In this document: positions 8,930 through 56,084 of the stretch, one piece after another | Layout of the letters: each line of letters starts with the position of its first letter | How positions within the stretch are numbered: the first letter of the stretch is position 1 | Assembly (NCBI GenBank): GCA_965231005.1 | Contig: OZ246405.1 | Span: 610,709 to 674,708, forward strand | Reading direction: 5' to 3' | DNA: 64,000 nt | Source: an uncultured Gammaproteobacteria bacterium | GTDB taxonomy: Bacteria > Patescibacteriota > Patescibacteriia > Magasanikbacterales > UBA922 | Notes under the pieces: model-generated | Told to the model about the DNA's origin: nothing | Seen by the model: the letters and a program-made list of their open reading frames with translations, nothing else | Databases searched by the model: none | Program-made: the position numbers and the translations under genes

Positions 8930-9047
8930 TTAAAAGTGATGTTTGTAGAACACCACCGGAGCGTCACGTAAAATCCCGACGTTGTCGGGATCACATGACG
9001 AATCGGTGAAGTTCCAATCGTGCCATTTTCACAGAGATTTGTATCTT

Positions 9048-9069
9048 ACCTGCCTGCCGGCAGGCAGGT
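9048..9069. repeat. Perfect 22-bp GC-rich palindrome acctgcctgccggcaggcaggt between smpB and ssrA
   Basis: Self-complementary sequence. A related core gcctgcctgccggcagg recurs at 34777-34793. Confidence 0.5.
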
Positions 9070-9079
9070 GTCTTTCTAT

Positions 9080-9529
9080 TTATGATATTTCCTTTATAGA
9101 TCTTTGTGCCTCTCGTTCAATATCTCTTCTTTTCTTTGTTTCTTTTTTGTCATACTTCTTTTTTCCTTTTCCTACACCAATTTCAACCTTTATCCGGCGG
9201 CCCTTAGTATATACTGAAAGTGGGACGATTGTCAAGCCCTTTTCCTGCGATTTTCCTTGTAAATAAGCGATTTGTTTGGCTTTTAAGAGTAATTTTCTGC
9301 TTTTTGTAGGATCGTAAGAATCAAGGTTTCCAGCATTTTTATACTTGCTAATATGTGCATTTGTAAGCAATGCTTCATTCTTATGAAAGGTGACAAAGGC
9401 TCCTTTTAGGTTTATTTGTCCATTTCGTACTGATTTTACTTCTGCTCCAGACAATACTAAGCCAGCCTCAAGTGTATCAAGGATGTCATAATCAAATAGC
9501 GCTTTTTTGTTCTTTGCGTACGTTGGCAT
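9080..9529 (-). CDS. smpB: SsrA-binding protein SmpB
   Basis: KKALFDYDILDTLEAGLVLSGAEVKSVRNGQINLKGAFV...GKGKKKYDKKE matches SmpB. Confidence 0.9.
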   Translation of the reverse strand: MPTYAKNKKALFDYDILDTLEAGLVLSGAEVKSVRNGQINLKGAFVTFHKNEALLTNAHISKYKNAGNLDSYDPTKSRKLLLKAKQIAYLQGKSQEKGLTIVPLSVYTKGRRIKVEIGVGKGKKKYDKKETKKRRDIEREAQRSIKEIS

Positions 9530-10648: not shown

Positions 10649-11416
10649 ATGGCAAATATTGTACATAGATCAATTGGTGTAGGAGTAGGAATATTTACTG
10701 TTCTTGCACTATTTCTTATTGTGAAGTTCCCAATTTGGTGGGTTCTTCTTTTAGTATTTATCATTTGGTTACTTATTATTCGTGGTTTCCAACATATCTT
10801 AAGAAAAATTATTTTTAGAAAGGATATCCAAATTCTCACGGTAGTAACCATGCTTGCCTTTATTGGTCTTCTTTTATTTGTTGAATGGAATTTGTTGCGA
10901 TCACTTTTGGTATTGCTTGGTGGAACAGTCATTGCGTTATTGCATTCATGGTCTGTCCCTTCCAGTGGATATACAACACATATAGAAAAGTCATACAGGC
11001 GAATTTTAATGATGCTTTGGGTGTTTGACACATATGGTATTCTTACAACATTGTTTGCTATAGATGTGTTTTTCCAAGGCTTTTCGTTTTGGCTTCTTAG
11101 TATTTTTTCAGGAGCATTATTTGCATTTGTGTCTTTTATGATTTGGAGAATGTATTATGATATTAGTTTTCGTCGAGCAACTATTTGGATGTCGTGTATT
11201 GGATTTATAGGAATTGAGCTGGTGTGGGTATTCCGATTGCTCCCGCTTGGATACACTGCCCTTGGACTATTTGTAACGTGGATATGGTATATTGTACAAC
11301 TCTTGTTTCGTTTTCATTTTAGTAAGGCAGGCGTGCAATGGAAACGACAAAGAATATTCCTTGGAGTTAATTTAATATTGTTTGTGGCACTTATGTTTGT
11401 TGTCTCATGGATTTAA
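10649..11416 (+). CDS. Hypothetical polytopic membrane protein
   Basis: 255-aa ORF with about 6 hydrophobic helices. Confidence 0.45.
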   Translation: MANIVHRSIGVGVGIFTVLALFLIVKFPIWWVLLLVFIIWLLIIRGFQHILRKIIFRKDIQILTVVTMLAFIGLLLFVEWNLLRSLLVLLGGTVIALLHSWSVPSSGYTTHIEKSYRRILMMLWVFDTYGILTTLFAIDVFFQGFSFWLLSIFSGALFAFVSFMIWRMYYDISFRRATIWMSCIGFIGIELVWVFRLLPLGYTALGLFVTWIWYIVQLLFRFHFSKAGVQWKRQRIFLGVNLILFVALMFVVSWI

Positions 11417-11636
11417 AACAATTAACAACTAACAATTATCAATTACCAACTTAGTATAGGGTGTTTTTGGCAGAAAGGAATTAGTTATTAGTTACTAGTT
11501 ACTAGTTATTAGCTAACTAAGTCTAGATCTTTCTTGTATTGACTATTAACTATTAGCTAATAGCTAGTAATACCATTCTCAATATAAAGAGTCTTTCTGT
11601 ACTATTTTGCTAATTGTTAATTGCTAATTGTTAATT
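11417..11636. repeat. ~220-bp palindromic AT-rich intergenic element (copy 2 of the element at 3705-3903)
   Basis: Its start (caattaacaactaacaattatcaattaccaacttagtataggg) is the reverse complement of the end of copy 1. Same core ttagttattagttactagttactagttattagctaa. Ends in gctaattgttaattgctaattgttaattATG. Confidence 0.6.
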
Positions 11637-12701: not shown

Positions 12702-12837
12702 GTCCTTCATTTAATTGGGGAAATCAGCTATACTATAGTTAATTAGTTAATTGGTTGACTAGCAAATTAGGCTATAAAATTTTTGCTTGAAAATTAATTG
12801 ACTAATTACCATTTTACAAATTAACAGATTAACCAAT

Positions 12838-13437: not shown

Positions 13438-13538
13438 TTTAGTTAAATGGTTGATTGGTTAATTAGTTGATTAGTAAGAAGAATCATTACAATATCCCCA
13501 ATAAACCAATTAACAAATACACAAATTAACCAGTACGT

Positions 13539-14067: not shown

Positions 14068-17000
14068 AATCATTCTTTTAACTATGAGTCCAGATGCAAA
14101 CAATGTAGTCGAGTTATTTCCTGAAAATGAATATGGTCCTGATCGAGGACCTGTTAGTGATGAACAAAAAGAAGCCAATCGTAAGGCAAAAGGTGAGCTT
14201 GGTGATATTTTGAGAAAACTAGAAGATCTCCAATCATTGCGCGATAAAGTTGAAACAACACTTATTGAAGATGTTGAAGCACTTATTCAGCATATTAATA
14301 ATAAGGAATATCACGATGAAGTTGTTGTTCAAGTAAAAGAACTTCGAGAAAAACTCGACGAAATTAATAAAAAAATGGAAGGGGTTTCAAAGTCGATTGA
14401 AACACGAGAAGTGCGAAAGCAACGAGAGAGTTTTGAGTTTACAGTGTCAGATGTTCTTGATGTCGTCGGAAGAGATAAGCTGCGAAATATTATGGTTCAT
14501 TTTCCTGATATGAATGCAGGCGAGCGGCAGCAGGTGTTTACAGGACTTTTTGATCACCTGGATGAAGAACAATCCAAAAATTTAAATAGAGTAAGAAGAA
14601 AAAAAGCGTTCGAGGTGTTTGAACCTTTTTTTCAAACTGCAAAACAAAAAAAAGCATTGGACGAAGCAAAGCGCGCACCAAATGATCAAGTGAGAGTGAA
14701 ACTATTTGAAGCAGCAGGGCTTATTGAAGATGAGACTGACAGAGAAAACGTGCTTCATACACTTTCAGAAATTTCTTTTTCTGATGATGACAATAAAGCA
14801 TTTATTAAAACATGGAAAGATAATATGGCCTTGCAAGCGCTTGATTCTGTTGAGTTTTATGAATATGGTGCTGCAGAGCAAAAAGTATTAGAACTTGCAG
14901 CTATAGAGGCAAAAAAAGGAAAAAAGAAAAAGAAATATAAACAAACCAGTCTAAAACAAAAGTTTGTAAATCTTGGAAAAGGAATAAAAAATTTGGCAGT
15001 TGCAGCTGGACAGCATGTTAAAAAAGAGTGGTGGGCTATGGCTCCAGCTGCGACATTGGGTCTTGTTGCAAGACACGCTGCATTGTCAACAACTCCTGAT
15101 TTTTATGCAAAGGCACTTGAATTAACAGGGGATGAATCTCAGTCTGCATTTTTAGCAGCTGGTGGTGCAGCAGCACTTGGGACATATGCACTTGCAGAAC
15201 ATGGGATTCGAGCATTGAAAACTCGTCTTTCCGTAAAGCCTGACAAAGCATTTGCAGAAGTTTCTGGTTTGGCAAAAGACATGTACGTCTCTGATCAGAA
15301 AAAGGGTGGAGAATGGGTCCTTGCAGGACATATTAGTCATATATTGCAACATGGAGGAAAAGAAGGACAGCAAACACATGAACGGCATGTAGAAGTCCTC
15401 AAAGTAATTGCAAAAGAATTGAGAAAAAATGGAGAAAAAGTTGAAGCAAATAGTGAGTTTATGAAAGCAGCACTACTTGCTATTGATGTAAAGGATAGAA
15501 AACGTGGTGGACAGTCAATTCTTTCAGAAAAATACCAGTCTCTTGGATTTATTCGTCGGACTATTGCAGAGGTTCGCGATCAATTTTATACAAAAAAGTG
15601 GAAAGACATTGGTGTTGGTGGTTCTGCGTTACAATGGATGTCCGGTGCTGCATTACATACATTACACAAAGGCTTGATTGGTGGAACAATTGCATGGCCA
15701 ATGCAGCGACCAGAAATTTTTGGTTTGTTTAGTGAGCGATTGGCAGCACGCTTTGGTGCAGCTGCAGTACCTGGCTGGTTACAAGAATTAGCAACAAAAA
15801 GAGGGGAACAAAAAGAAGATAAATGGGAAATTGAGAGAAAACGTCTTGAAAAAGCAGTAAGTCCTGAAGCATATGGAAAATTAACTTTATATAAAGCAAC
15901 AAAAGTTTCAGAAGATCAATTGTTAGATATTCAAAGAGAAATCACAGAATTGAATTATTACATTAGCACCTGGAGTGATGTAAGCTCTCTCTCATCAGAT
16001 GGGAATAAATTAAAGCGTGCTGGAAGAAAAATTACAACCAATGTGCGTAAACAATTTCAAAGTGATTTGCTCGATGTGTGGCCACGGTATAAAACTGCTG
16101 CACTTGGTTTGCATCAAGAATATGAACGACTATATGAAGAAAAAAGACAGGAACTGATTGAAAAACAGTTAGCAAAAGTTTCCAAAAGTTTGTCAGAGGC
16201 AGGCAAAACAAAGCAAAGAGAAAAAATGCAAGAAGCCTTGCCGGAAAAATTGAAGAAACGAGAGAAAAAGAGAAATAAGAATATTCCGAAAAAGACATTT
16301 GACATGAAATTGCCAGATGAAAAAACACCAACAGAGCGATTGTTAGGAAATTCAAAAGTTGAGGTTGCTGATAGAAGAAAAACATTAGTACAAGGGTTGA
16401 AAATGGGAATGCTTGCTGCAGCATTTGGAAAGGCATTTGATATGGCACGAGTTCATTTTCCACATATTTTTGATAGACCACCAGAAGTCATTCCGCATGG
16501 CGCGTTTGCAGGTTGGGATGAAGATCCATTTATTGATCATGATCGGTATGACCAATATGGAAATGAAATTTTTCCAGACGATGCGTATCCGTCACAAGGA
16601 GAAGAAGCATCTCCGCCTGCTGAAACACCACAAGAACCAACTGTTCCAAAAAGAGATAGGACAAAAGAAGAAATTCGACGTCTTGCAGGTTTGGGTGGTC
16701 GTTCTGGTCGAGTTGAAGATATTCCAGTGCAGGGCGAAGACGCACTCGTGACAGAAAAAGACGAAGTTGCAAAAGGAACAGGACTTGATTCAAGTAAGGA
16801 TGGAAGTGCTGCACTCATTGGTGAACCAAAAGAACCAACATGGGAAGAAAAGATTGCAGAGCGTGGAAGTCCTGCAGAATCACTTTCAAAAACAGAACAG
16901 TACATGAAATATTTGATGAGAGAAGAACCTAAAAAATATTCAAAAGCAGATTTTAAATTATTTCAACACATGCAATCTATTTTGGAAAAACAAAATGAAT

Positions 17001-17332: not shown

Positions 17333-17539
17333 AAAATTAGCCCTTTGACTCGTCACTTCGTTCCTCGCTAAGGACAAGCAAAAAACAAAGAACAAAAAAC
17401 AAGTATTTTAATTGGTATTATTCTTGAAAAAAATTACTAAAATGGCTTAAATAAGTCATTTTTTTCATTTCTTTATGTTTCTTACCTTTTTACTTTTTAG
17501 CATTTTCGCTTTTTTGCATTTTTAGTGATTGCAAAGTAC

Positions 17540-17568
17540 TTGACAAAATGGTAAAAATATGGTACAGT
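17540..17568 (+). promoter_or_regulatory. Sigma70-like promoter TTGACA-17-(TGg)TACAGT, copy 1 of a duplicated promoter cassette
   Basis: tacttgacaaaatggtaaaaatatggtacagtttgc matches 21721-21756 except for 2 nt. Confidence 0.55.
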
Positions 17569-17720
17569 TTGCTGTTTACAGTGCCCATATTGTGTATGAG
17601 CAGCATTTGTTGTGATCTCTTAGATTGTGACAGTTGCCAAGCAATATTTTTTCGCTGAAGTAAGCTAAAAAGTGCTGTAAAAAAATGCACATTACAAATA
17701 CATGATGCACCTATGTGTAT

Positions 17721-17776
17721 TGGATTAGTCAATCAATGGATATTCTTTTTGCTGTCTTTTGATTGACTAACCCAAT
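17721..17776 (+). promoter_or_regulatory. 18-nt-arm inverted repeat ATTGGaTTAGTCAATCAA-N21-TTGATTGACTAAcCCAAT abutting the SD of the first island gene
   Basis: Arms match with one mismatch. The SD aaggagg follows 2 nt later. Confidence 0.5.
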
Positions 17777-17791
17777 CAAGGAGGTGCAGTC

Positions 17792-19882
17792 ATGTCACCA
17801 GATCAGAAAAAACCTGATGGTGGTGCACATGGTAGTGCACCGCCGAAACGATCAACACTCGAACTTCATGCTGACAAGATCGTCAGCTTGGTCCAACAAG
17901 ACGGGCCAGAGGAGAACCCCATGACCGACAAGAAGACTGATACAACAACGCCGGGTCATGAGGTTCATGATTCGAATTCTGAAACCCCACCCCCGCTGCC
18001 AAGTGTGCTCGACTCGCTTGCTCCTGAGGACATAGCAAGAATAATAAGAGGAGAATCACAACCACTGCGAAGTGAATTGGTGCGATGTCCGAACTGTGGT
18101 GCTGTCTACCCTATGGATCAGGGAAAGGTCCAGGGTGGTTCTGAAAAGGATCAACAGTGTGTGTTGTGCCTTCATGAATTCACCCTCGGTGATGACAATG
18201 AAGCACAAGCAACAGCACAGTCTGAAACCCCACCACCAGTGCCTTCTTCGAACGTTCCGGCGGACAATGAGAAAATCCAATGTCCGAACTGCAAAACCAC
18301 ATTTCGGTCCATTGAAATCCTGCTTTGGGATCGCAATTACAAGTACGTCGTCTGCAGCCACGGATTCACCATCGATAACGACACTGAAGCACAAGCAACA
18401 GCACAGTCTGAAACCCCACCCCCACCCCCACTTCCGCTTCTCATTGGGGACAATGCCCCAGGTGGGAAGAACGTGACTTGCCCAAACTGCGATAAGGTCT
18501 ATTCACTGGATCCAGCTGACTTTGTAGGTGGTTTCCCGAACGTCTTTCAGTGCGCCCTATGCAATCATTGCTTCACTATCGATGATGAAACTGACGCACA
18601 GGATGACACACCACCTGCAATTCCGACCGCGCAGCAGCGTGCAGACAGAACAGGACTGACTGAGCCGTACAAGCCACTCGCCGACATCAAAGATCCAGAT
18701 GCTGATACGTCCACGATTCGTGAAACCATGCCAAGTCACCCGGGCCAAGCTCGTCGCGCTGAAAGCGATCACTACACGCAGGATGAACTTCCTCGCGTGG
18801 AAGATGAACGTGAAACACGGCAAGACCTTCCTGTTGTCACTGGCGATGATCAAGACACCAAGCCTGACATGGACGTTGTCAAAGCCGAAGACCTCGATGA
18901 AGACGATGCTGCTGAACTGGAAAAGGATGATGGCAAGGAAGCTGAAGAGCTGCCCCCGCCGATTTCAAGTCCCATGTTCAGTCCGGAACTGCGCAAACCA
19001 AACCCTGGTTTTCAGCTGCCTCCTCATCTCGAAGAGGTCGTTCGACTCTCTGCTGCTTCAACTCCCGATTCTCTTGCTTCCGGCGATGACGATCCATTCG
19101 GCGACGGCGGAGATCCCTTTGCTGGCCCAGGCACGAATCCCTTTGCTGTTGACGCAGATGATCCCTTCGGTGCTGAAGTTCCGTTCGGTCCAGGAGATGA
19201 TCTTGGGATGAAGGACGAAGACTACGGTGGTCCGAATGATTCTGTCGACGATGGTGATGAATTGCCTCCTGTCATGCCGGCTGATTCCAGTAAGGCGGCT
19301 CCCAAGCCGTCGCTGATTACTGGTTCCAGACCAAGGTTTCGTCCGACTGGACCTGTGCCTTCGGTTCACGATCAAGACGACAAAAGTGGCCCCCCGCCTC
19401 CTCGTCGTCAAGATCATCGAAAGACAATCCGAGTTCCACGTCATCGGCCGACTGCTCGTCCAGTGCCACCACCACCTCCTGGCCCGGCTCCCATTCGAAC
19501 GCCGACGCCTAGTGGTGGTTCACCCATTCCTGCATCTGCACCTGTTTCTACTCCGCCTCCGGCTGCGAGTACAACAGGACCGTCTGCTGCACCAACCCAG
19601 GCTGCTGCGGCTCCGCCCGCACAGTCACAACCGCCGGCTCCAACTGGGCCAGTGGTTGGTCCGACGGCATCAAGTGGCAGTGCTACTACACCGGTCAAGA
19701 CCAACAAGACCGTTGTGTGGATCATCGCCATTCTGATTGTTGCATGCCTGGCTCTCAATGCCTTTAGCGTGTGGCAAAGCAGAAACATCAGAAAGAACGT
19801 CATCGCGGTTCTGAAACATCGCGCTGGCATCCAAAAGGTCATTCAGGCTCCAATGCCGAAGACCAAGGGGGAAGAGAAATGA
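17792..19882 (+). CDS. Hypothetical protein with N-terminal Cys4 zinc-ribbon-like repeats, an acidic/Pro-rich disordered region and a C-terminal TM anchor
   Basis: GC-rich ORF with a strong SD. Three recognisable CPNC-x15-24-C-x2-C units, each ending in an acidic linker with EAQATAQSETPPP in the first two. A near-identical 35-nt segment recurs at 18197 and 18381. C-terminal helix TVVWIIAILIVACLALNAFSVW. Confidence 0.55.
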   Translation: MSPDQKKPDGGAHGSAPPKRSTLELHADKIVSLVQQDGPEENPMTDKKTDTTTPGHEVHDSNSETPPPLPSVLDSLAPEDIARIIRGESQPLRSELVRCPNCGAVYPMDQGKVQGGSEKDQQCVLCLHEFTLGDDNEAQATAQSETPPPVPSSNVPADNEKIQCPNCKTTFRSIEILLWDRNYKYVVCSHGFTIDNDTEAQATAQSETPPPPPLPLLIGDNAPGGKNVTCPNCDKVYSLDPADFVGGFPNVFQCALCNHCFTIDDETDAQDDTPPAIPTAQQRADRTGLTEPYKPLADIKDPDADTSTIRETMPSHPGQARRAESDHYTQDELPRVEDERETRQDLPVVTGDDQDTKPDMDVVKAEDLDEDDAAELEKDDGKEAEELPPPISSPMFSPELRKPNPGFQLPPHLEEVVRLSAASTPDSLASGDDDPFGDGGDPFAGPGTNPFAVDADDPFGAEVPFGPGDDLGMKDEDYGGPNDSVDDGDELPPVMPADSSKAAPKPSLITGSRPRFRPTGPVPSVHDQDDKSGPPPPRRQDHRKTIRVPRHRPTARPVPPPPPGPAPIRTPTPSGGSPIPASAPVSTPPPAASTTGPSAAPTQAAAAPPAQSQPPAPTGPVVGPTASSGSATTPVKTNKTVVWIIAILIVACLALNAFSVWQSRNIRKNVIAVLKHRAGIQKVIQAPMPKTKGEEK

Positions 19883-21558
19883 ATACGTTTATCAAGGTGC
19901 TACTCGCCATTCTCATCGGGGTTGTGGTCGCTGTGTCCGGCTACTTCGCATGGGAAACCATGAACACGAACAAGGCGCTCCTCGCTGAACTGAACAAGAC
20001 CGACAACGGTGCCCAGGAGGACACCAAGGTCAAGCCGGCGCCGAAGAAGTCGGCTGTCAAGAAAGCTGACAAGGCTTCCACGTCCCAGGCCAAGACGGCC
20101 GGCGACAAGAACGACCCCAAGAAGGTCGAGGAAGCTGCGAAGGCTGCCGAAGCCAAGAAGAAGGCCGAGGCCGAAGCTGCTGCCAAGGCTGCTGAAGCGA
20201 AGAAGAAGGCTGACGAAGCTCGCAACGACTGGGATGAAATCAACTCCCGTGGCGACGACCAACTCAGAGCTGAGAAGTTCGACGAAGCGTTCAAGACCTT
20301 CAAATCCTTGATCGGACACGAGCATCAGAATCATGGACTGGCTTACTACAACATCGCCTGCCTGTTCTCGGTGCAGTCTGTGTCAGACAAGCTCAAGGGC
20401 AAGAAGAAGGCGATTCGCAAGAGCAAGAAGCAAGCCCTCCACTACCTGGCTCAGGCCTGGGTAGCCGGCTACGACGACCTCGAATGGATGGAGAAAGACG
20501 AGGATCTCGATTCGATCCGCAAGACCCGCGGCTACAAAGAGATCAAGCGTCTGGCAGTGGAAAAGGGACTGGTTCGGCTCCCTGCGCCGGCCACCGAAGA
20601 CGTCGCCAAGAAGGCCAAGGATGAGCAGAAGGAACCCACGCCCAAGCTGACCGGCATCCACGCCCTGCGTGCCATGCCGATCAAGGGAGTTGCCGATTCT
20701 GACGAAGCCAGCAAGGCTGACAAGGACGCCAAGCGCATCGCCAACGCCAACGCCAAGAAGGTCAAGGGCAAGAAGGTTCGCAAAGGCAGCCGCGGCATCT
20801 CGTTCCTGGCCAAGGCTCGAGCCGAAGCCAAGCGGATGTACGCCAAGCTCCACAAGGACCAGAAGGCTCGTCGTGCAGCGCTCAACCGTGCGATCGCCCG
20901 ACTCAAGCGTGGCTACAAGCGCAAGAGCGATCTTGACAAGCAGGACGTTGACGACGAGATCGCAGAGCTCAAGCGAAAGGAGCAGGAACAGTCCGACGAC
21001 GAGGATCGGAAAGCCAAGGAAGAGGCCGAAAGGATGCTCGCCGACGGCAAGACCCAAGACGAGGTCAAGGCTATGTACGATGCTCTGGAGCGCAAGCAAC
21101 AGGCTCGTCGTGCAGCGCTCCTCAGCAAGATCGCGGACGAGCAAAGGCAGGCACGACAGCAGCGTCAGGATGATGCAGTCGACCTTCGCGATGAGATCGC
21201 CAAGCTGCGCGAAGCCGACAAAAAGGCTGACACGCAGTCCGCGGCAGCTGCCAAGGATCACGTGCAAGCCTTGTTCGACAAAGCGCAAGCCGCGACCAAC
21301 CGCGCCAACGCAAAGCGCGCGCGTCAACAGCGTCAGCGTGCGGCAGCGCCCTCGCGTCCGAGCTCGCCGCCCAGCCGTCCGGCTTCGGGTGGTTCGTCCA
21401 GCCTCGCACATGCGCCTGCGGCAGTTTCCAGCTGTCCGTATGGTGGAGACGAGGCCAACTGCGTCAAGAAGACGGTCGCGTACTTGACCAAGTTCGGTAC
21501 GCCCCTGGCCGATGCCAAGGGGAGTGCCAAGGCCAAGTGCAGCGCGCGCTGTCTGTAG
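19879..21558 (+). CDS. Membrane-anchored TPR/coiled-coil protein ending in a four-Cys module
   Basis: The ATG overlaps the upstream TGA (ATGA), indicating translational coupling. N-terminal TM helix. TPR-like GLAYYNIACLFS. Lys/Ala/Glu-rich coiled coil. C-terminus SCPYGGDEANCVKKTVAYLTKFGTPLADAKGSAKAKCSARCL. Confidence 0.55.
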   Translation: MNTFIKVLLAILIGVVVAVSGYFAWETMNTNKALLAELNKTDNGAQEDTKVKPAPKKSAVKKADKASTSQAKTAGDKNDPKKVEEAAKAAEAKKKAEAEAAAKAAEAKKKADEARNDWDEINSRGDDQLRAEKFDEAFKTFKSLIGHEHQNHGLAYYNIACLFSVQSVSDKLKGKKKAIRKSKKQALHYLAQAWVAGYDDLEWMEKDEDLDSIRKTRGYKEIKRLAVEKGLVRLPAPATEDVAKKAKDEQKEPTPKLTGIHALRAMPIKGVADSDEASKADKDAKRIANANAKKVKGKKVRKGSRGISFLAKARAEAKRMYAKLHKDQKARRAALNRAIARLKRGYKRKSDLDKQDVDDEIAELKRKEQEQSDDEDRKAKEEAERMLADGKTQDEVKAMYDALERKQQARRAALLSKIADEQRQARQQRQDDAVDLRDEIAKLREADKKADTQSAAAAKDHVQALFDKAQAATNRANAKRARQQRQRAAAPSRPSSPPSRPASGGSSSLAHAPAAVSSCPYGGDEANCVKKTVAYLTKFGTPLADAKGSAKAKCSARCL

Positions 21559-21577
21559 TCTGATCTGGTGAGAACCT

Positions 21578-21645
21578 GGCTTCCCGGTGCTCGTACGTTT
21601 ATTCGTACTTGCATCGGGAAGCCTCCTCACTTTCTTCTTTTTCTT
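21578..21645 (+). terminator. Terminator hairpin ggcttcccggtgctcgtacgtttattcgtacttgcatcgggaagcc plus a T-rich tail
   Basis: Long near-perfect stem immediately after the stop at 21558. Confidence 0.5.
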
Positions 21646-21723
21646 GAAAAGAGGGGAAAGCAGGGAAAATACCTTATTTAAGCCAAAAAAGATAAGTTTT
21701 TATGGTCTATAAAGCCTAAATAC

Positions 21724-21752
21724 TTGACAAAATGGTCAAAATATGGTATAGT
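21724..21752 (+). promoter_or_regulatory. Sigma70 promoter TTGACA-17-TATAGT, copy 2 of the duplicated cassette
   Basis: Near-identical to 17540-17568. Confidence 0.55.
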
Positions 21753-21943
21753 TTCTGGTCAAAATTGATAAAATATATACCCTTATCTATTGGCGTGCCA
21801 GTGCATAATCCATGCAATATGCAGTGCGCGCGAGTGTGATAAGGTACAGAAAATGTACATCGTACATTCTTTGTGTGTCACACCGCTTTCCAGACGTTTT
21901 AACGTCATCCAACAGGTTCATTACATTACTACATCACTACAAC

Positions 21944-22074
21944 TGTTCGATCGGTAAACAAGTTCATAATATTTGTGTACTGCTTTACCGGTCGAACATT
22001 TCACATCGCCTTTCTGACCGGGGGCACAGTTAATTCCAAGGTACGTTACCAAGGAACAAATTGACTGCGCCTGG
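21944..22074 (+). promoter_or_regulatory. Conserved ~130-nt structured 5' leader element, copy 1
   Basis: About 90% identical to 24885-25014. It contains a 14-bp stem GTTCGATCGGTAAA/TTTACCGGTCGAAC and a variable sub-hairpin. Confidence 0.5.
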
Positions 22075-22112
22075 TTTTCTGGGCGACGTGAAACAACAGA
22101 AGGAGGTGCGCA

Positions 22113-23402
22113 ATGGCGTACGCCGTTCGAAAAACCCGATCCGGGGGTGCCGGACAATACGTTTCAGTTTTTTCCGACCGTGCTGCGGTTCTCCGAAAAA
22201 TCGCGCGAGGGATGATCCGCAAGGGTGCGTTCATTCGCGTGGTTCCGGACACGGCTGCTACCAACGATGGCGAGAAGGCCGCAGTCAAGGCTGATCTGGA
22301 TAACGCGGATTTCGTGCTCATCGAGAACCATCCGCATTTCGCTGGCATCAACTTCCCGGCGCCTGCTGACGCTTCGGCTGCTGCGACTGCGGATGCTGCG
22401 GCCACCCGTGCGAATGCCAATGCTGCTGCGGCCAATGTGACCGTTGCGGAGGCTACTGCTGCTCAGGCTCAAACCGAAGCCGACGCTGCTAACGCTCGTG
22501 CCAACGCTGCTGATGCCGCCACTGCTCAGGCCAACGCCGAGGCTACTGCTGCTCAGGCTCGTGTCGACGTTGCCAACGCTGCTGCTGCTCAGGCCAACGC
22601 CGAGGCTACTGCTGCTCAGGCTGCTGGGGATGCTGACGCTCAAGTTGCTGCTGCAGAGGCTGTTGCGGAGGCTGCTGCTGCTCAGGCCGATGCTGCTCAG
22701 GCACATGCCGACGCGGTTCAGGCTGCTGCGGATGCTGCTCAGGCTGCTGCGGATGCTGCTGACGCTGCTACCCAGGCTGGTGCTGCTGCCGGTCAGGCTC
22801 TGATCGCTACCAGTCAAGCTCGGGATGCTGCTGCTGAGGCTGAGGCTGAGGCGCTCGAGGCACAGGCCGATGCGGACGATGCTGCTGCCTTTGCTCAGGC
22901 TCAGGCCGACGAGCGGGCCAATCGCCGTTCGGTTCGGTTCGTCGCGTGGCTGCGTCGCAACTGGAAGAAGGTTCTGCTGGCTCTGCTGGTTCTCCTCCTT
23001 CTCGGTTGCGTGTGGTTCTTCTGGAGCAACATCAAGGCCCTGGTCACGGGGGGTGGTGGTTCGCCGCCGCCTTCGGTGGTGAACCCGCCGACCCCACCGA
23101 CGCCGCCCGTTCCGACGCCGCCCGTTCCGCCGCCGCCGGCTGCGACTCCGGTCGTTCCGCCGCCGACGGTGACGCCTCCGCCACCGCCCGCGACTCCGCC
23201 GGTTTCGCCGACGGTCACGCCTCCGCCGACCCCGCCGACTTCGGGGGGCACGGCAGCGCCGACTGGACAGCCTGGCTGTCCGTTCGGTGTGGGGTACACG
23301 GACTGTTACACCAAGACGGTGGCCTACCTGGTCAGCCATGGTGTGGCGACTTCGGACGCGCAGGACAAGGCGCGCGAGAAGTGCGGACCGCGTTGCAGGT
23401 GA
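22113..23402 (+). CDS. Bitopic protein with an Ala-rich repeat region, a Pro-rich linker and a C-terminal four-Cys module paralogous to the one at 19879
   Basis: SD aggagg. Repeats AATAAQANAEATAAQA. TM helix VLLALLVLLLLGCVWFFW preceded by a basic stretch. PPTPP linker. C-terminus GCPFGVGYTDCYTKTVAYLVSHGVATSDAQDKAREKCGPRCR. Confidence 0.55.
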   Translation: MAYAVRKTRSGGAGQYVSVFSDRAAVLRKIARGMIRKGAFIRVVPDTAATNDGEKAAVKADLDNADFVLIENHPHFAGINFPAPADASAAATADAAATRANANAAAANVTVAEATAAQAQTEADAANARANAADAATAQANAEATAAQARVDVANAAAAQANAEATAAQAAGDADAQVAAAEAVAEAAAAQADAAQAHADAVQAAADAAQAAADAADAATQAGAAAGQALIATSQARDAAAEAEAEALEAQADADDAAAFAQAQADERANRRSVRFVAWLRRNWKKVLLALLVLLLLGCVWFFWSNIKALVTGGGGSPPPSVVNPPTPPTPPVPTPPVPPPPAATPVVPPPTVTPPPPPATPPVSPTVTPPPTPPTSGGTAAPTGQPGCPFGVGYTDCYTKTVAYLVSHGVATSDAQDKAREKCGPRCR

Positions 23403-23824
23403 TGTAGCCTGTTGGAGGGAAGCCCGCTACCGGCGCATGCATTCGTGTGTGTGTCCGGTAGCCCTCCAACCGCTTTCTTTTATAAAAGAGAAAGAGGTTG
23501 GGGGAATACAAAATTAGAAATTGGAAATTAGGGATTAAGTGTATTGACATATTGAGTAATAGAGAAAAGAAATTTTCTTTAGTACTCAGGGTGTCATGTA
23601 GACATTATTGTAAAATTACAATGTGTCTCGTGTCCTGATTAGACAGGTTCATTATAATTTAGTTGAAGAATAACTATCTGGTGGGTAAAAAGATAATATA
23701 CATATGTTACTTTTTTTCTCACCAGATAGTGGCACGTGCCGCTTGTTTCTTCGTCGCCCTTGGGGCATTTCACAAATGGCCCCATCGGTGAGGAGGGGCA
23801 AGGCAACAACAACAGGAGGACGCG

Positions 23825-24724
23825 ATGAACATCCGTCTCGTTTCGTTCATGATCGTCGCATCGGTGACGGTCGGTTTCATTTCCATCAACTCATTCGCGC
23901 AGGCACCGGCCGACTACCCAGCCGTTCGCGACGATGCGCACAAGGGTGCTTCGCTCGCCGAGTCCAACGCCAAGCGCCTGACCGCCCTGGAGAAGCGGAT
24001 CAAGCGGCTCAAGCGCGCCAAGGCTGCGGCCAAGGCCAAGCACACGGCCAACCCGACCCCCGCCAACAACGTCGCTCTGAAGGCCGCGGTCCGCGCGCTC
24101 GACGAGGCCAAGAAGGCAGGTCTGTCCATGTGCGCCCTGAAGACTGGCGAGGATTTCCGGCACTGCATCGACGTCGTGGAAGGCAAGGTGTTCGAGGTGG
24201 AGAAGGACTCCATCCGGATGGCCGCGCTGCTCGCAGTCGGCTGCATCGTGAAGGAGAACAAGTCCACAGATCCTTCCAAGGGTTCGAAAAAGGGCGCATC
24301 CATCACGACCACCGAGCTCGTCTGCGACAAGGACAAGGCCAAGAAGGCGCCGCGCTGCATCCGGTTCAAGCGCTTCAGCAAGCACGCGCACACCTACTTC
24401 GACGTCGGCGGTGACAACTGCAAGGAAGAAGACAGCAACCCGCTGCCCAAGAAGCCGGCGACTCCGCCCAAGCCCAAGGCCGAACCGTGGTCCAAGGGCA
24501 AGCGTTTGCTGGCCAGCGCTGGCATGTGCCTGCTGGCCGGTGGTGTGCTCGCTGTTCCTGGTTACGTCATCGGCGACGCCATCGAGGGCGGTCACTGGGA
24601 GACCAATCCGGAGACCGGCAACGACGACTGGTATGCGCCCAAGGGTCCGCTCGGTGCTGGCATCGGCGGTCTGACCGGCTGCCTCAGCGCGTTCGCGGGC
24701 ACATGGAGTGCGACGAGCGAGTAG
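23825..24724 (+). CDS. Secreted Cys-containing hypothetical protein
   Basis: SD aggagg. Signal peptide MNIRLVSFMIVASVTVGFISINSFAQA. Seven Cys residues. Gly-rich hydrophobic C-terminal segment. Confidence 0.5.
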   Translation: MNIRLVSFMIVASVTVGFISINSFAQAPADYPAVRDDAHKGASLAESNAKRLTALEKRIKRLKRAKAAAKAKHTANPTPANNVALKAAVRALDEAKKAGLSMCALKTGEDFRHCIDVVEGKVFEVEKDSIRMAALLAVGCIVKENKSTDPSKGSKKGASITTTELVCDKDKAKKAPRCIRFKRFSKHAHTYFDVGGDNCKEEDSNPLPKKPATPPKPKAEPWSKGKRLLASAGMCLLAGGVLAVPGYVIGDAIEGGHWETNPETGNDDWYAPKGPLGAGIGGLTGCLSAFAGTWSATSE

Positions 24725-24884
24725 CCTTTCTTCAACTGCTGAATCTGTCGGGGGTTGGTAGCATGTTCATTCATGTCTGTCAACCCCCGTCGGAATATCT
24801 TTCTCTTTGTAAAAAGGGAGAGATGAACGATTATTGTTCATTACAATTGAGAAACTACTACAGAAACATCTTGAATACCTTTTG

Positions 24885-25014
24885 TGTTCGATCGGTAAAC
24901 AAGTACATAACATTTGTGTACTGCTTTACCGGTCGGACATTTCCACATCGCCTTTTTGACCGGGGGCACAGTTAATCCGTGGCGTGTTGCCGCGGACCAA
25001 ATTGACTGCGCCTG
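24885..25014 (+). promoter_or_regulatory. Conserved ~130-nt structured 5' leader element, copy 2
   Basis: See 21944-22074. The same position relative to the downstream SD and start. Confidence 0.5.
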
Positions 25015-25071
25015 AGAAATTGGGCGATTGTGGAATGATTCGGGCGAGACCCGAGAAAAGAGAGGTAACTC

Positions 25072-28000
25072 ATGAACAGCAAGCTCAACACGATTTCCGT
25101 TTGTTTCGTGGCGCTGATGATCGTTTTCGGGTGCAGCCCGGACGCGAGCTACAAGCCCAACGACCCCAAGAACCCCAACCCGGCCCGCAAGGCCGATGCC
25201 AACAACAGCGACACCAGCAGCGCGGATGCGGGTTCGAGCGCGGATACCGGTCAGCCGACCGATCCGTGCGCCGATCCCAAGTTCTGCAACGATGGCAAGG
25301 TCTGCACGGCCGACACCTGCAAGGACGGCAAGTGCAAGCACACCATCGACGCGACGCTCTGTGATGACGGCAACCCCTGCACACATGACCTGTGTGACGA
25401 CCTGGGGATCTGTGTGAACAAGGCTCACGAAGGTTCGTGCCAGGACGGGAATGCCTGTACTGTGGGTGATCATTGCAAGAATGGCACCTGCCAGTCGGGA
25501 AAGAACATGCCCTGTCCCAACGAGAACTCGTGTGTCATCGCAACCTGCAACCCGAAAGAAGGCAAGTGCAACTACGAGCCCAAGAGCGGTGACTGCAACG
25601 ACGGCAACAAGTGCACGGTTGGCGATTTCTGCATCAACCAGAAGTGCAAGAGCGGTTTCAAGAAGTTGGACTGTGATGACAAGAACGTGTGCACGACTGA
25701 CAGCTGCAATCCAGAAGACGGTTGTGTTCACAAGCCGATCGACCTTCCCTGCAGCGACAACAGCTCGTGTACCATCTCGGATAAGTGCAAGGACGGAAAA
25801 TGCGTGGGCCAGGTTGTCAACTGCGACGACAAGAACCCGTGCACGACCGACTCGTGCGATCCGGCGGCGCCCCCGGGCAAGGCATGCAAGCACGTGAACA
25901 ACACCAGCGAGTGCGACGACGGCAACAAGTGCACGTCCGGCGACGTTTGCCAGGATGGTCAGTGTAAGAAGGGAACCACGTCGGTCGATTGCGACGACGG
26001 GAACCCGTGCACTACCAATTCCTGCGACGCCAAGGTCGGCTGCCAGAAGCTCAACAACAACAACTCGTGCGACGACGGCAACAACTGCACCATCAATGAC
26101 AAGTGCTTTAACGGCAAGTGCAACTCCACTACCAAGAAGTGTGGCGACAGCAACAAGTGCGTCACCAACACGTGCGACCAGGCAACTGGCGCGTGTGTGA
26201 AAAAGGAGCTGTGCGACGACGGCAAGGCCTGCACCGAAAACACGTGCGACATCAACACCGGCAAGTGCGAAAACCCTGACAAGAAGTGCGACGACGGCAA
26301 GGCCTGCACCAAGGATAGCTGCAACACCACCACGGGCAAGTGCGAGTACGAGATGATCGTTGGTGCGAACTGCTTCTGCAAGTTCGACTCCAACTGTGAC
26401 GACGGAAACGAGTGCACTGTCAGCGCATGCGATAAGGCGACTGGCAAATGCGCGCTCGCGAAGAAGTACAGCGGGACCTCGTGTGACGACGGGAACCCGT
26501 GCACCACCTCGGACAAGTGCGACCCCAAGACCGGCAAGTGCTCGTCGGCAAAGGCCACGGCCTGCGACGACGGGAACCCCTGCACGGACGACTCCTGCGA
26601 CCCCACGGTCGTTGGCGGTTGTGTGGCGGTGAAGAACAACAAGCTGTGTGACGACGGTGACGCGTGCACCAAGGGTGATATCTGCCTGGACGGCGCGTGT
26701 AACCCCGGCAAGGCCCCGGTCTGCGACGACGGCAACATCTGCACGGATGACAGCTGTGACTCGAAGCTCGGATGCAAGAACACGGCCAACTCGGCCAGCT
26801 GCTCGGATGGGAGCGCCTGCACCTCAAACGACAAGTGCGAGGGCGGGAGCTGCAAGAGCGTTGCGGTGAAATGCGACGACTCCAACCCCTGTACCGACGA
26901 TAGCTGCGACGCGAAGGTCGGCTGCAAGTACGCCAAGAACACCAAGCCGTGTAACGACGGTGACGAGTGTACCATCAGCGAGGTGTGCAAAGACGGCAAG
27001 TGTGGTTCTGGCAAGGCCAAGTCGTGCGACGACAACAAGAAGTGTACCATCGACTCGTGCGACAAGGACAAGGGCTGCCAGCACAAGCAGATTTCCTCGG
27101 CGACCTGCTGCGCTTCGGACGCTGAGTGCGACGATAAAAAGCCGTGCACGGTGGACAAGTGCGATCCGAAGGAAGGTTGCAAGAACACCAAGAAGCTCTG
27201 CTCGGACAACAACCAGTGCACCGACGACGTGTGTGATCCCCAGTCTGGAGATTGCAAGCACACGAAGTTCAGTGGACCGGCCTGCGACGACGGCAACAGT
27301 TGTACCAAATCCGAGAAGTGCGAAAAGGGCAAGTGCGAAGCTGGCTTTACCATCAAGTGCAACGACAACAAACCCTGCACCAAGGATACGTGCGACACCA
27401 AGGGCGGATGCGTCTTCACCAAGACCGTGGATCCCTGCGACGACGGGGACGCGTGTACGAATGGAGACAAGTGCGCCAATGGCGAGTGCGTGTCTGGCAA
27501 GCAGATCGTCTGCGACGACAACAAGGTCTGCACGACCGACAGCTGTGACTCCAAGAAGGGGTGCGTGTTCGCGAACAATTCGGATGCCTGTACGGACGGA
27601 AACGCCTGTACACCGAATGACGTCTGCAAGGACGGCAAGTGCTCGTCGCAGCCTGAGAACTGTGACGACGCGAACGCGTGTACCAACGACAGTTGTGACA
27701 AGAGCAAGGGCTGCAAGCACATCAACAACACCAAGGTCTGCAACGACGGCAACAAGTGTACGGACAACGGAGTCTGCAGTGGCGGCGCCTGCAAGCCGGG
27801 CAAAGCCATCAACTGCGACGACGGCAAGAAGTGCACGACGGATAGCTGTGACCCGACCACGGGCAAGTGCAAGAACGTGGCGCTGGTGTGCGATGACGAC
27901 GCCTGTACGGATGGCGATGGCAAGTGTGACGAGAGCACGGGCAAGTGTGCAGTGGGTCTTCCCAAGAACTGCACTGACACCGACGTGTGTACCAAGAATT

Positions 28001-28593
28001 TCTGCTCGGAAGGAACCTGCAAGGTCTCTCCGAACTGCGATGACGGGAACGCATGCACGGCTGATAGCTGTGACCCAAAGAAGCCCGAGAAGGATCAGTG
28101 TTCGCACGTCCCGATCTCGGGTTGCAAGTCGGTCGAGGTCAAGCTCTCCGTGGTTTTTTCTGAGATGTTCAAGATGGAAGCCGCACCCAAGGGTGGCAAC
28201 TACGTCCGGTTCTTCGTCAAGAAGTGCGAGGCCAAGGCTGCTGACGGCTCGTCCGTCATGTTGCTCAAGCCTGGCTCCTTCTACGGAGGCGCTGAGATCA
28301 AGAACAGCTCGAAGCTCGAGTACACCAATCCTGCAAAGGTCCAGGACTTCGTGCAGATCCCGAAGAATGCCTGCTGCATCAACATCGTAGGGTACCAAAG
28401 CAGTAAGATCTCCAATCCTTACGGGGACTCGAAGATCTGGGCTTTCAGTACGACTCCCAATACCAAGACCCACAACATGGAGCCGGTCCTCACGACCAGC
28501 AATGGACTGACGTACAAGTTCACGTTGAAAGACGTCCATGACAACGGTGTGGGGGGATACGACGCGTGCAACAGCGAAGTCATCTCCAAGTAG
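25072..28593 (+). CDS. Giant lipoprotein with ~60 tandem Cys-rich repeats (CDDGNxCTxDxCD...) and a distinct ~170-aa C-terminal domain
   Basis: Signal/lipobox MNSKLNTISVCFVALMIVFGCS. Regular ~12-aa repeats with an invariant Cys-Asp-Asp-Gly-Asn-x-Cys-Thr pattern, reminiscent of Myxococcales-type Cys-rich repeats. The repeat register confirms the + frame. Confidence 0.65.
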   Translation: MNSKLNTISVCFVALMIVFGCSPDASYKPNDPKNPNPARKADANNSDTSSADAGSSADTGQPTDPCADPKFCNDGKVCTADTCKDGKCKHTIDATLCDDGNPCTHDLCDDLGICVNKAHEGSCQDGNACTVGDHCKNGTCQSGKNMPCPNENSCVIATCNPKEGKCNYEPKSGDCNDGNKCTVGDFCINQKCKSGFKKLDCDDKNVCTTDSCNPEDGCVHKPIDLPCSDNSSCTISDKCKDGKCVGQVVNCDDKNPCTTDSCDPAAPPGKACKHVNNTSECDDGNKCTSGDVCQDGQCKKGTTSVDCDDGNPCTTNSCDAKVGCQKLNNNNSCDDGNNCTINDKCFNGKCNSTTKKCGDSNKCVTNTCDQATGACVKKELCDDGKACTENTCDINTGKCENPDKKCDDGKACTKDSCNTTTGKCEYEMIVGANCFCKFDSNCDDGNECTVSACDKATGKCALAKKYSGTSCDDGNPCTTSDKCDPKTGKCSSAKATACDDGNPCTDDSCDPTVVGGCVAVKNNKLCDDGDACTKGDICLDGACNPGKAPVCDDGNICTDDSCDSKLGCKNTANSASCSDGSACTSNDKCEGGSCKSVAVKCDDSNPCTDDSCDAKVGCKYAKNTKPCNDGDECTISEVCKDGKCGSGKAKSCDDNKKCTIDSCDKDKGCQHKQISSATCCASDAECDDKKPCTVDKCDPKEGCKNTKKLCSDNNQCTDDVCDPQSGDCKHTKFSGPACDDGNSCTKSEKCEKGKCEAGFTIKCNDNKPCTKDTCDTKGGCVFTKTVDPCDDGDACTNGDKCANGECVSGKQIVCDDNKVCTTDSCDSKKGCVFANNSDACTDGNACTPNDVCKDGKCSSQPENCDDANACTNDSCDKSKGCKHINNTKVCNDGNKCTDNGVCSGGACKPGKAINCDDGKKCTTDSCDPTTGKCKNVALVCDDDACTDGDGKCDESTGKCAVGLPKNCTDTDVCTKNFCSEGTCKVSPNCDDGNACTADSCDPKKPEKDQCSHVPISGCKSVEVKLSVVFSEMFKMEAAPKGGNYVRFFVKKCEAKAADGSSVMLLKPGSFYGGAEIKNSSKLEYTNPAKVQDFVQIPKNACCINIVGYQSSKISNPYGDSKIWAFSTTPNTKTHNMEPVLTTSNGLTYKFTLKDVHDNGVGGYDACNSEVISK

Positions 28594-28802: not shown

Positions 28803-28831
28803 TTGAATAATAGTGTTTTTTCAAGTATACT
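28803..28831 (+). promoter_or_regulatory. Sigma70 promoter TTGAAT-17-TATACT placed for a leaderless transcript
   Basis: The -10 ends 6 nt before ATG 28838. The ORF-track GTG start at 28832 would lie inside the promoter. Confidence 0.45.
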
Positions 28832-28837
28832 GTGAAT

Positions 28838-36142: not shown

Positions 36143-36302
36143 GGTTTTTTACCTAAAATAAGCTAAATTAGTGTACTCATAATAACATATAATTGTACCA
36201 CATTTAAGCGTTTTTGTCAAGTCCTCGGGCTGGTCTTTGAGATATAAAAAAATGGCTTAAATAAGCTATTTTTTAAAGACTGGAAATTTACATTTTTTTG
36301 TC

Positions 36303-36551: not shown

Positions 36552-36570
36552 AAAAGAGTATGAAAATGTT

Positions 36571-56054: not shown

Positions 56055-56084
56055 AAAAAACCCGACCAAACGGTCGGGTTTTTC
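56055..56084 (+). terminator. Rho-independent terminator aaaaaacccgaccaaacggtcgggtttttc
   Basis: 9-bp stem and T-run. Confidence 0.55.

Follow-up and report, generated by a model that had tools for sequence, protein, structure and literature searches.

A promoter class and candidate upstream word linked to a high-GC surface-protein block in Magasanikbacterales

To our knowledge, the transcription signals of Patescibacteria (the candidate phyla radiation, CPR), organisms that are uncultured, are almost uncharacterized. Why, then, does a genome from this group carry almost the same promoter in front of two unrelated genes of foreign-looking composition? We addressed this question in a 64,000-nucleotide (nt) stretch of a Magasanikbacterales genome (assembly GCA_965231005.1, contig OZ246405.1, positions 610,709 to 674,708), hereafter termed the window. 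Its guanine-cytosine (GC) content is 35%, against 58% in a block of five genes, isl1 to isl5, at 17792-28593; the two promoter copies, P1 and P2, lie within or at the edge of this block. An original prediction had regarded them, together with a shared upstream motif, as a portable host module placed before acquired genes. Comparing the window with loci from related genomes and metagenome contigs (L-numbers below), we arrived, with moderate confidence, at a different explanation: P1 and P2 appear to be paralogous sigma-70/sigma-A promoters of a class linked to this block throughout the lineage, and the motif, centred on the 13-mer TGGCTTAAATAAG, would be an upstream docking word.

Results

Two copies of one promoter precede unrelated genes

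The sequence TACTTGACAAAATGGT[A/C]AAAATATGGTA[C/T]AGTTT occurs at 17537-17570 and 21721-21754 and nowhere else in the window, with 2 mismatches over 34 nt. No match to this 34-nt core arose in 100 shuffles (expectation 0), and the predicted duplication is thus real; of the 36-nt string originally given for it, only the last base differs, P1 reading ..TTTG and P2 ..TTTC. Both copies are intergenic and co-oriented with the gene that follows, 218 nt before isl1 (the first gene of the isl1-isl2 operon) and 355 nt before isl3, in agreement with the claim that they precede the transcription units of the island. An assembly artefact is unlikely, since an ENA metagenome contig from an independent assembly (L003/L005) contains both copies at the same distance of 4184 nt. 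P1 was additionally found in a second sample (L004/L006). The exact pattern gave 0 matches in GTDB representative genomes, a set to which the source genome itself does not belong.

Each copy combines the hexamers and spacing of a sigma-70/sigma-A promoter (P1 TTGACA-17-TACAGT, P2 TTGACA-17-TATAGT) with an extended −10 element (TRTG; ATATGG-TACAGT and ATATGG-TATAGT). A consensus scan that included the TG ranked them among the best sites in the region, with scores of 10/12 (P1) and 11/12 (P2). The conserved Y-G step places the predicted starts at G17574 (ttgctGTTTA) and G21758 (ttctgGTCAA); a pyrimidine-G step matches the usual start-site preference. Other evident promoters of the window, those of rplT, a tRNA, the isolated high-GC gene isl0 and a GT4 glycosyltransferase gene, follow the same design, TTGACA..TGnTAnAnT. 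The TRTG motif, or '−16 region', is reportedly the extended −10 of Gram-positive sigma-A promoters. P1 and P2 resemble that type in TTGACA, the 17-nt spacer, T-R-T-G upstream of a TAnnnT box and intergenic placement on the strand of the gene, but carry additional lineage-specific bases (c ahead of the −35, AAAAT behind it, GTYM at the predicted start) and have the whole spacer in common.

Because much of this sequence is fixed by the lineage consensus (TTGACAAAA, T-R-TG, TA..T), the likeness of P1 and P2 might reflect convergence on a lineage-optimal promoter instead of common descent. A metagenome scan with a 25-nt core returned four unrelated contigs with the same 25-mer, for which convergence is conceivable given, by our estimate, millions of consensus promoters within this collection. 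We compared the pair with a position profile of 147 TTGACA-N17-TAnnnT sites from 840 kb (window plus related loci). Among 200,000 pairs simulated from the profile, the mean was 17.5/34 matches and the maximum 29, and at least 28/34 matches had a probability of 3e-5 per pair; the P1/P2 pair reaches 32/34. Identity extends to the 3 nt flanking the core on each side (TAC, TTT). Moreover, all other real pairs with at least 29 matches were orthologues between genomes, leaving P1/P2 as the sole top-ranking pair from within one genome. As their similarity exceeds that of every simulated pair, P1 and P2 are, judged by this comparison, paralogous copies, homologous beyond consensus likeness, and we consider convergence highly improbable.

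The homology ends at the core edges: the flanks do not align, and the first genes after P1 and P2 are not homologous (isl1 versus isl3, BLASTP E = 1.3). Core-limited homology before unrelated genes corresponds to promoter reuse in the sense of Nijveen, Matus-Garcia and van Passel (2012; NAR 40:10032; PMC3575422), who described similar upstream sequences before non-paralogous genes in one genome, some of them common to distant taxa, with an unknown mobilization mechanism. Their mobile promoters are defined by at least 80% identity over at least 50 nt within −150..−50 of the start codon (PMC3575422). The genes after P1 and P2 are likewise not paralogous, but their repeat is limited to 34-36 nt, at a distance of 220-390 nt to the start codons; a 145-nt leader repeat in the block (see below) has the identity and length of that definition but reaches about −170. 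A second case of promoter reuse within the window is an inverted one: the isl0 promoter (40 nt) is an 80% inverted copy of the rplT promoter (4475-4519 versus 7174-7213). The −35 TTGACA of the isl0 promoter sits inside the loop of an A-tract/CCCC..GGGG/T-tract terminator hairpin (4475-4519).

Upstream of P1, the DNA looks host-like, both in its GC content (32%) and in a T-rich tract that matches the upstream region of a native extracytoplasmic function (ECF) sigma gene (Table 1). We rejected the idea that the entire region ahead of P1 was duplicated colinearly into the intergenic region IG2, as the 13-mer is inverted there and the intervening sequence to the promoter does not align. Directly upstream of isl4 and isl5, no convincing sigma-70 promoter was found. 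Outside the block, a Wzy-like gene and the ECF sigma gene start within a few nt of a −10-like box (TATACT at 28826-28840 and TTAAAT at 40188-40200, the stretches that span box and gene start), which suggests that their mRNAs are leaderless, unlike those of the block genes with their 200-350-nt leaders.

A recurrent block with its own promoter class

The window encodes pyruvate-phosphate dikinase, tRNA-Asp, rplT-rpmI-infC, tmRNA, smpB and a long envelope-glycan region with a wzz-like gene, three Wzy_C proteins, many GT4 glycosyltransferases, an epimerase, a carbamoyltransferase, the ECF sigma factor and a DUF5667 protein. The products of the high-GC block are secreted or membrane-anchored low-complexity proteins. 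Those of isl2 and isl3 share a 47-amino-acid four-Cys C-terminal domain (43% identity, E 1e-9) and are otherwise unrelated.

Taken further, the original prediction of a host module placed before acquired genes amounts to a recent horizontal acquisition of the block by this genome, with a native promoter module copied before its transcription units. Composition fits such an origin: GC content at third codon positions (GC3) is 0.45-0.84 in block genes and 0.24 in the host. Among 5.8 billion proteins, isl4 had no homologue, isl1 matched only itself and isl0 had a single homologue, in L064 (49% identity). The host-like P1 flank, with its T-tract 84% identical to the ECF sigma upstream region, and the presence of the same module at a native gene (promoter P3) also speak for this scenario. 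Other marks of a recent island were missing. We found no integrase or transposase domain, no tRNA at the block borders and no direct repeats flanking the block among the repeat families listed (top 20 of at least 60). Protein homology searches yielded no nameable donor lineage. In viral contigs, the promoter and the leader repeat both gave 0 matches, which offers no sign of a phage vehicle.

The relatives closest by the wzz-like protein belong to Candidatus Magasanikbacteria/Magasanikiibacteriota (up to 50% amino-acid identity), followed further out by Uhrbacteria and other Patescibacteria. Scanning species-representative genomes with this protein gave 53 loci, 36 of which had enough flanking sequence for evaluation. 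In 20 of the 36, from Magasanikbacteria and Uhrbacteria, GC content steps up by 10 points or more in the 10 kb that follow wzz; of the other loci, several end just where GC begins rising, and three belong to uniformly high-GC genomes. The far border, visible in three relatives (L027, L047, L060), is a Wzy_C gene, as in the window, while the contents vary between genomes (MopE, collagen, somatomedin-B and Big domains, orphans). Equivalent blocks were noted in L008, L011, L027, L034, L041, L044, L047, L049, L051, L053-L056 and L060. In these blocks, that of the window included, the proteins are secreted and rich in Cys, Asp, Gly, Pro and Ala, with GC3 of 0.6-0.84 in genomes of GC3 0.24-0.5, and the intergenic promoters and leaders stay AT-rich.

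Since a block occupies the same spot in 20 of 36 relatives, it is not a private acquisition of this genome. 'Foreign' holds for its composition, not its history; the locus represents either a hotspot that is conserved or an anomaly that is maintained. Its GC-rich open reading frames (ORFs) could stem from repeated import of cassettes with their own AT-rich promoter and leader, or from a force specific to coding sequence.

The promoter class recurs together with the block. One of the four contigs from the 25-nt scan, L008 (FLOH01000142.1), is syntenic with the window, encoding a 254-amino-acid membrane protein, a 355-amino-acid PDZ protein and a Wzz-like protein 34% identical to that of the window (E 6e-37). 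Its block consists of 60-67% GC genes for MopE-type Cys-repeat lipoproteins in a background of 47-49% GC, and a TTGACAAAA-type promoter with a long leader precedes every one of these genes. The 25-nt core in L008 is identical by construction, having served as the search pattern; the informative aspects are synteny and its placement inside the block of so distant a relative. Overall, 46 of 136 strict promoters fell into blocks, although these made up only 12.8% of the sampled DNA (0.44 promoters per kb in blocks versus 0.13 outside). In sequence, block promoters were nearer to P1/P2 than the remainder (mean Hamming distance 9.1 versus 11.9; Mann-Whitney p 1.6e-6) and had the TG in 100% of cases, versus 58%. 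Their logo reads c-TTGACAAAAT, N8, T-R-T-G-n-TAtAnT, N5 and, at the predicted start, G(87%)-T(96%)-Y(100%)-M(89%), with G, T and Y at +6 to +8 after the −10. Among promoters with TG, GTY was found in 40/44 (91%) in blocks and 18/39 (46%) elsewhere (p 1e-5). It also fits P1, P2, P3 and the isl0 promoter, with predicted starts of the latter two at about 36186 (minus strand) and about 4518, and transcripts would accordingly be predicted to begin with GUY.

High-GC genes outside blocks show the same module. The isl0 homologue in L064 is a 55%-GC gene in 35-40% GC DNA and follows TTAGCCAA, 10 nt, TTGACAAAATGACTATTTTATGATATGTT and attttGTCT; a second high-GC gene nearby is preceded by TTGACAAAACGCCATTTTTATGGTATTTT and aatacGTTG. 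Occurrence of one class in the blocks of relatives and at isl0 and its L064 counterpart indicates that the promoter is a component of the lineage's block or cassette system. Thus, of the original proposal, homologous promoters before unrelated genes of alien composition stand, while the block and promoter class proved to be lineage-wide. We regard recent acquisition as distinctly improbable.

A promoter-upstream word in the window and across the lineage

The 13-mer TGGCTTAAATAAG occurs exactly three times in the window, always in intergenic DNA (shuffle expectation 0.00); a coding region contains one more copy, with 1 mismatch, at 52448, which we left out of the count. The longer motif originally described, AAAATGGCTTAAATAAG(TC/CT)ATTTTTT, was recovered in copies 1 and 3, whereas copy 2 has only the 13-mer plus ..TATTTT. 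Copy 1 follows the stop of a 1091-amino-acid gene by 107 nt and is centred ~89 nt upstream of the P1 −35. The gap to the −35 hexamer is 84 nt for copy 1 and 38 nt for copy 2; counted to the 34-mer, the gaps are 72 nt and 24 nt, close to the values first quoted. Copy 3, correctly placed by the original prediction in a native intergenic region, precedes the minus-strand promoter P3 by 32 nt. Copies 2 and 3 have the same orientation relative to their promoter (..TTATTTAAGCCA, then −35) and copy 1 the opposite one. With orientation varying in this way and distance ranging from 32 to 84 nt, word and promoter do not form a fixed cassette.

Across the lineage, the corresponding word is (C)TTATTTWAGCCA(AAA), which is ~11 times as frequent as expected in the 110 nt before strict promoters; TGGCTTAAATAAG would be the version of this genome. 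When all 6-mers in the 100 nt ahead of 87 strict TG promoters were ranked without prior choice, TTAGCC, TAGCCA and AGCCAA came 1st, 2nd and 4th (11-16 observed versus 1.2-3.0 expected). TWAGCCA was present 12 times in forward and 11 times in reverse orientation, against 1.04 expected for each; in 2000 shuffles, both orientations together gave 2.1 +/- 1.5 and never more than 8, against 23 in the real sequences. Gaps between word and −35 cluster at 16-18, 27-28, 36-38 and 48 nt. For 14 proximal sites, some of them orthologous and 3 off-phase, we obtained R = 0.65 at a 10.5-nt period (nominal Rayleigh p 0.0015). The word stands at orthologous first-block promoters, in the position of P1, in seven relatives (L013, L019, L020, L022, L030, L055 and L060). 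It is arranged as head-to-head dyads in L029, L034, L041, L055, L060 and L018 (TGGCTTAAATTAAGCTA), as tail-to-tail dyads in L013 and L063, as direct repeats in L022 and at 4452-4479 of the window, and as single sites in L017, L019, L020 and L039. P1-like promoters found independently in L007 and L009 also have TTATTTAGC or TTTAAGCAA..TGGCTT upstream. With this positional bias, the idea of an UP-like or factor-binding element gained support over that of a low-complexity AT word scattered at random. Strict promoters are also preceded more often than expected by DnaA-box-like words (TTATCCACA / TGTGGATAA; TTATCC, 13 times versus 2.2 expected). These words occur in L018, L031, L044, L050, L051 and L059, in L044 and L050 also at the promoter that opens the block.

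A dyad with arms of A and T (AAAATGGCTTAAATAAGYYATTTTTT) surrounds the 13-mer in copies 1 and 3 and folds as a modest hairpin (−7.6 kcal/mol, z −4.8, and −10.3 kcal/mol, z −3.9). The element might thus be the core of a weak bidirectional intrinsic terminator (A-tract, GGCTTA/TAAGYY stem, T-tract) that insulates upstream genes, its location ahead of promoters being a matter of compact-genome neighbourhood and the three copies being duplicates of one terminator-promoter spacer. Copies 1 and 3 each follow a gene end (at 17332 and 36303, the latter of the minus-strand ORF 36303-36644) and have the anatomy of such terminators, of which ~100 of the A-tract/hairpin/T-tract type exist in 840 kb of the lineage, including AATGGCTgaaataAGCCATT (L041) and AATATGGCtaaaataaGCCATATT (L055). 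A terminator immediately followed by a −35 is the local norm (4475-4512, 56058-56115). The stems of the element are weak, with G-U pairs. Copy 1 has the stem-loop and T-run of a terminator in weak form (−7.6 kcal/mol, T7). The strand relevant to copy 3 has an A-C mismatch in the stem (−5.5 kcal/mol), and copy 2, directly behind the −41 kcal/mol isl2 terminator, shows no significant fold; a simple terminator scan of the window listed none of the three. Elsewhere, dyads follow another hairpin or lie 310 nt beyond the gene end (L055, L060), and many relatives have only single or direct-repeat half-sites, which cannot form hairpins. The spacing to the −35 is nominally phased, and the word often recurs without a partner arm; conservation of both stem and loop sequence among genomes ~33% identical in protein is not expected of generic terminators. 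We consider the terminator explanation possible for copies 1 and 3 but unlikely overall. Positional bias and nominal phasing favour a docking site for a protein or RNA polymerase, and the word probably represents a factor-binding or UP-like site, a better fit than chance, low complexity or a generic terminator; for copies 1 and 3, docking and termination are not mutually exclusive.

How closely does the word match known activating elements? Class I activator sites of the CRP type are centred near −61.5, −72.5, −82.5 and −92.5, and UP elements are bound by the RNA polymerase alpha C-terminal domain. The word resembles these in lying upstream of the −35 in both orientations, in the A-tract after its core and, more tentatively, in spacing classes about one helical turn apart. 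It differs in its irregular half-site layout and its GCC-containing core (TWAGCCA), UP elements being A/T-only and located at about −38 to −59; the window copies, centred ~40-89 nt upstream of the −35 start, lie further upstream. A sigma-54 reading of TGGC..GC was discarded, the spacing being one base short of the consensus. No regulator gene is adjacent to the locus, and no cognate DNA-binding protein candidate emerged; the ECF sigma gene at 40198 presumably has a different promoter type.

Several observations count against the docking-word and block-promoter interpretation. The word is found at only 19/87 strict promoters, and TWAGCCA-type half-sites are not enriched across the window overall (9 observed versus 17.6 expected). 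Its arrangement is mixed, 3 of 14 spacings are off-phase and the gap at P1 is 84 nt, whereas a classical dimeric regulator would be more regular. To these must be added the likeness of copies 1 and 3, each just past a gene end, to the bidirectional terminators of the lineage. The promoter statistics assume independence though some promoters are orthologues, and the 'non-block' controls include false or misclassified promoters, several of them being block promoters of uniformly GC-rich genomes.

Leaders and terminators of the block

Both promoters are predicted to produce long leaders (Table 1). The segment 21940-22085, in the isl3 leader, is ~90% identical to 24880-25025 upstream of isl5, a gene unrelated to isl3; apart from this IG2/IG4 pair, alignment of all five block intergenic regions was uninformative. 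Before block genes of the window and of relatives, we noted a conserved leader module that consists of single-stranded GTTCWTTACA(A)T, 15-45 nt and a long two-part hairpin (z-scores −3.8 to −9.1), with stem sequences that differ between loci. From its layout, it may be an undescribed cis-regulatory or antitermination-type RNA. Rfam searches of the window and one relative's leader at gathering and permissive thresholds returned only tmRNA, a tRNA and sub-threshold noise. We dismissed GTTCATTA as a generally enriched word (28 occurrences versus ~25 expected by our estimate); only the longer GTTCWTTACA-plus-hairpin module is meaningful. Further terminators of the block region lie at 23416-23470 and 24745-24790. 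First-block leaders of six related loci (Table 1) additionally carry GAGAGAGACC ... CTCTCTCACCCnGGAGAG-TTTTTT ~100 nt past the predicted start. The 5' arm of this terminator can pair with an upstream copy, an attenuator-like layout.

Table 1. Positions of promoters, upstream elements, block genes and leader features (window coordinates unless a locus is named)
Feature	Position	Strand	Description
P1 core promoter	17537-17572	+	−35 TTGACA 17540-17545, 17-nt spacer, TGg + TACAGT (−10) 17560-17568
P2 core promoter	21721-21756	+	−35 TTGACA 21724-21729, 17-nt spacer, TGg + TATAGT 21744-21752
T-rich tract just upstream of P1	17495-17531	+	84% identical to 40134-40170, upstream of native ECF sigma gene
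P3, strong native promoter	36192-36220	-	TTGACAAAAACGCTTAAATGTGGTACAAT then tatatGTTAT; 11/12 consensus with TG; serves GT4 gene 34970-36142
Fourth strong promoter	4484-4512	+	TTGACAAAAGGGGTTTTTTGTGCTATACT then gtgttGTTAG; precedes high-GC isl0 (4596-5423)
13-mer TGGCTTAAATAAG, three copies	17443-17455, 21673-21685, 36253-36265	+, -, +	
Upstream element copy 1	17439-17465	+	AAAATGGCTTAAATAAGTCATTTTTTT; dyad with A and T arms
Upstream element copy 2	21666-21690	-	plus strand AAAATACCTTATTTAAGCCAAAAAA; degenerate dyad, inverted relative to copy 1
Upstream element copy 3	36246-36274	+	AAAAAAATGGCTTAAATAAGCTATTTTTT
Degenerate direct-repeat version of element	4452-4479	+	CCTTATTTTAGCAAAATATTAGCAAAAA
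High-GC block, five genes	17792-28593	+	GC3 0.45-0.84 versus 0.23-0.25 in flanking genes
isl0	4596-5423	+	isolated single high-GC gene outside main block
isl1	17792-19882	+	three zinc ribbons, Pro-rich region, C-terminal transmembrane segment
isl2	19879-21558	+	overlaps isl1 (isl1-isl2 operon)
isl3	22113-23402	+	block gene
isl4	23825-24724	+	block gene
isl5	25072-28593	+	1173 amino acids, lipoprotein signal, Cys-rich repeat (15 matched stretches)
Four-Cys C-terminal domain	21412-21555 (isl2), 23256-23399 (isl3)		CP[YF]G..C..KTVAYL...G....A.....KC..RC
isl1-isl2 leader, predicted	17574-17791	+	218 nt, AT-rich; hairpin TTAGTCAATCAA..TTGATTGACTAA just before ribosome-binding site (read from sequence)
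isl3 leader, predicted	21758-22112	+	355 nt; GTTCATTACA at 21916, then long hairpin
isl2 terminator	21573-21640	+	strong, GC-rich; −41 kcal/mol then T-rich tail; immediately before copy 2
Leader module, window	21916-22085, 23647-23730, 24836-25025		
Leader module, L012-L020	L012 16267; L013 16444, 18625; L019 10922; L020 15901		
Leader module, L029-L059	L029 16099; L030 16561; L034 19537; L053 14449; L059 18456		
GAGAGAGACC/CTCTCTCACCCnGGAGAG leader terminator	L012 ~16090-16200, L013 ~16290-16400, L019, L020, L030, L059		
L064 isolated high-GC orphan genes	6001-6978, 7999-9369		same promoter class, low-GC DNA

Further features of the window

A 128-nt inverted repeat (3780-3907 / 11418-11545, 90% complementary) with stop-codon-rich words (TTAGTTA, CTAACTA, TAATTAG) flanks a 7.5-kb segment that carries isl0, tRNA-Asp, rplT, infC, tmRNA, smpB, an AI-2E transporter gene and an ORF of 255 amino acids (10649-11416). 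Similar words fill neighbouring intergenic regions and recur at 12702-12837 and 13438-13538. The ORF 53457-54524 contains three tandem 204-nt repeats at 53697-54308 (77-83% identity), and the tmRNA (8532-8929) has an unusually long predicted tag peptide, ANLVNRVKSAIANAFSTPALATAVA.

Discussion

Taken together, the data partly support the original interpretation and shift its emphasis from import to a lineage-wide system. In the explanation that we favour, the housekeeping holoenzyme would initiate at G17574 and G21758, transcribing isl1-isl2 from P1 and isl3 from P2, each through a long leader that probably starts at the conserved G of GTY. This promoter class appears to mark the genes of a hypervariable high-GC surface-protein block within a cell-envelope glycan locus. 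The upstream word, tens of nt from the −35 in either orientation and as single site, dyad or direct repeat, most likely serves as a DNA docking site for an activator-like protein or the RNA polymerase alpha subunit; docking would boost or gate the promoters by recruiting or stabilizing polymerase, and the long structured leaders may add a second layer of control. Paralogy of P1 and P2, association of the class with the block, and enrichment and positional bias of the word are direct observations, whereas promoter activity, transcription starts and protein binding are deduced from these sequence features.

Enterobacterial O-antigen and capsule clusters offer a parallel: they have atypical GC content between conserved flanks, a JUMPStart/ops leader element and RfaH. 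The locus studied here is similar in its atypical, hypervariable segment at a fixed envelope-glycan position and in the conserved non-coding elements of its long leaders. It differs in that the GC content of the block is higher than that of the genome, that the cargo consists of secreted or anchored repeat proteins instead of sugar enzymes and that each block gene is described with its own promoter and terminator; a NusG paralogue or an ops-like role would be hypothetical here. Searches of Rfam and of the searchable literature returned no description of the word, start motif, leader module or high-GC block in these phyla, which is no proof of novelty.

A more far-reaching and, in our view, speculative proposal is that Magasanikbacteria and Uhrbacteria have a dedicated expression system for hypervariable GC-rich surface-protein cassettes that travel as five-part units. 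Such a unit would comprise the docking word, an invariant strong promoter, the GUY start, a leader (GUUCWUUACAAU plus long hairpin) and a GC-rich ORF with its terminator. The conserved promoter and leader sequences would double as homology handles for cassette shuffling within and between genomes, an arrangement that would account for the two repeats before unrelated genes, the verbatim promoter and the 145-nt leader.

The promoter itself is ordinary; what had not been described is the lineage-wide grammar of −35, TRTG, −10 and start motif, the candidate factor-binding word with its apparently phased spacing, and the tie of these signals to a surface-protein block. The locus also corrects a tempting inference, as atypical GC content is here no proof of private, recent acquisition: cassettes and promoters may be exchanged repeatedly at a fixed hotspot, or a force specific to coding sequence may keep the ORFs GC-rich. 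For the biology of these episymbionts, the signals are linked to a compositionally anomalous, hypervariable set of secreted Cys-, Pro- and Ala-rich proteins encoded in the envelope-glycan locus, proteins that are the likeliest candidates for mediating attachment to hosts.

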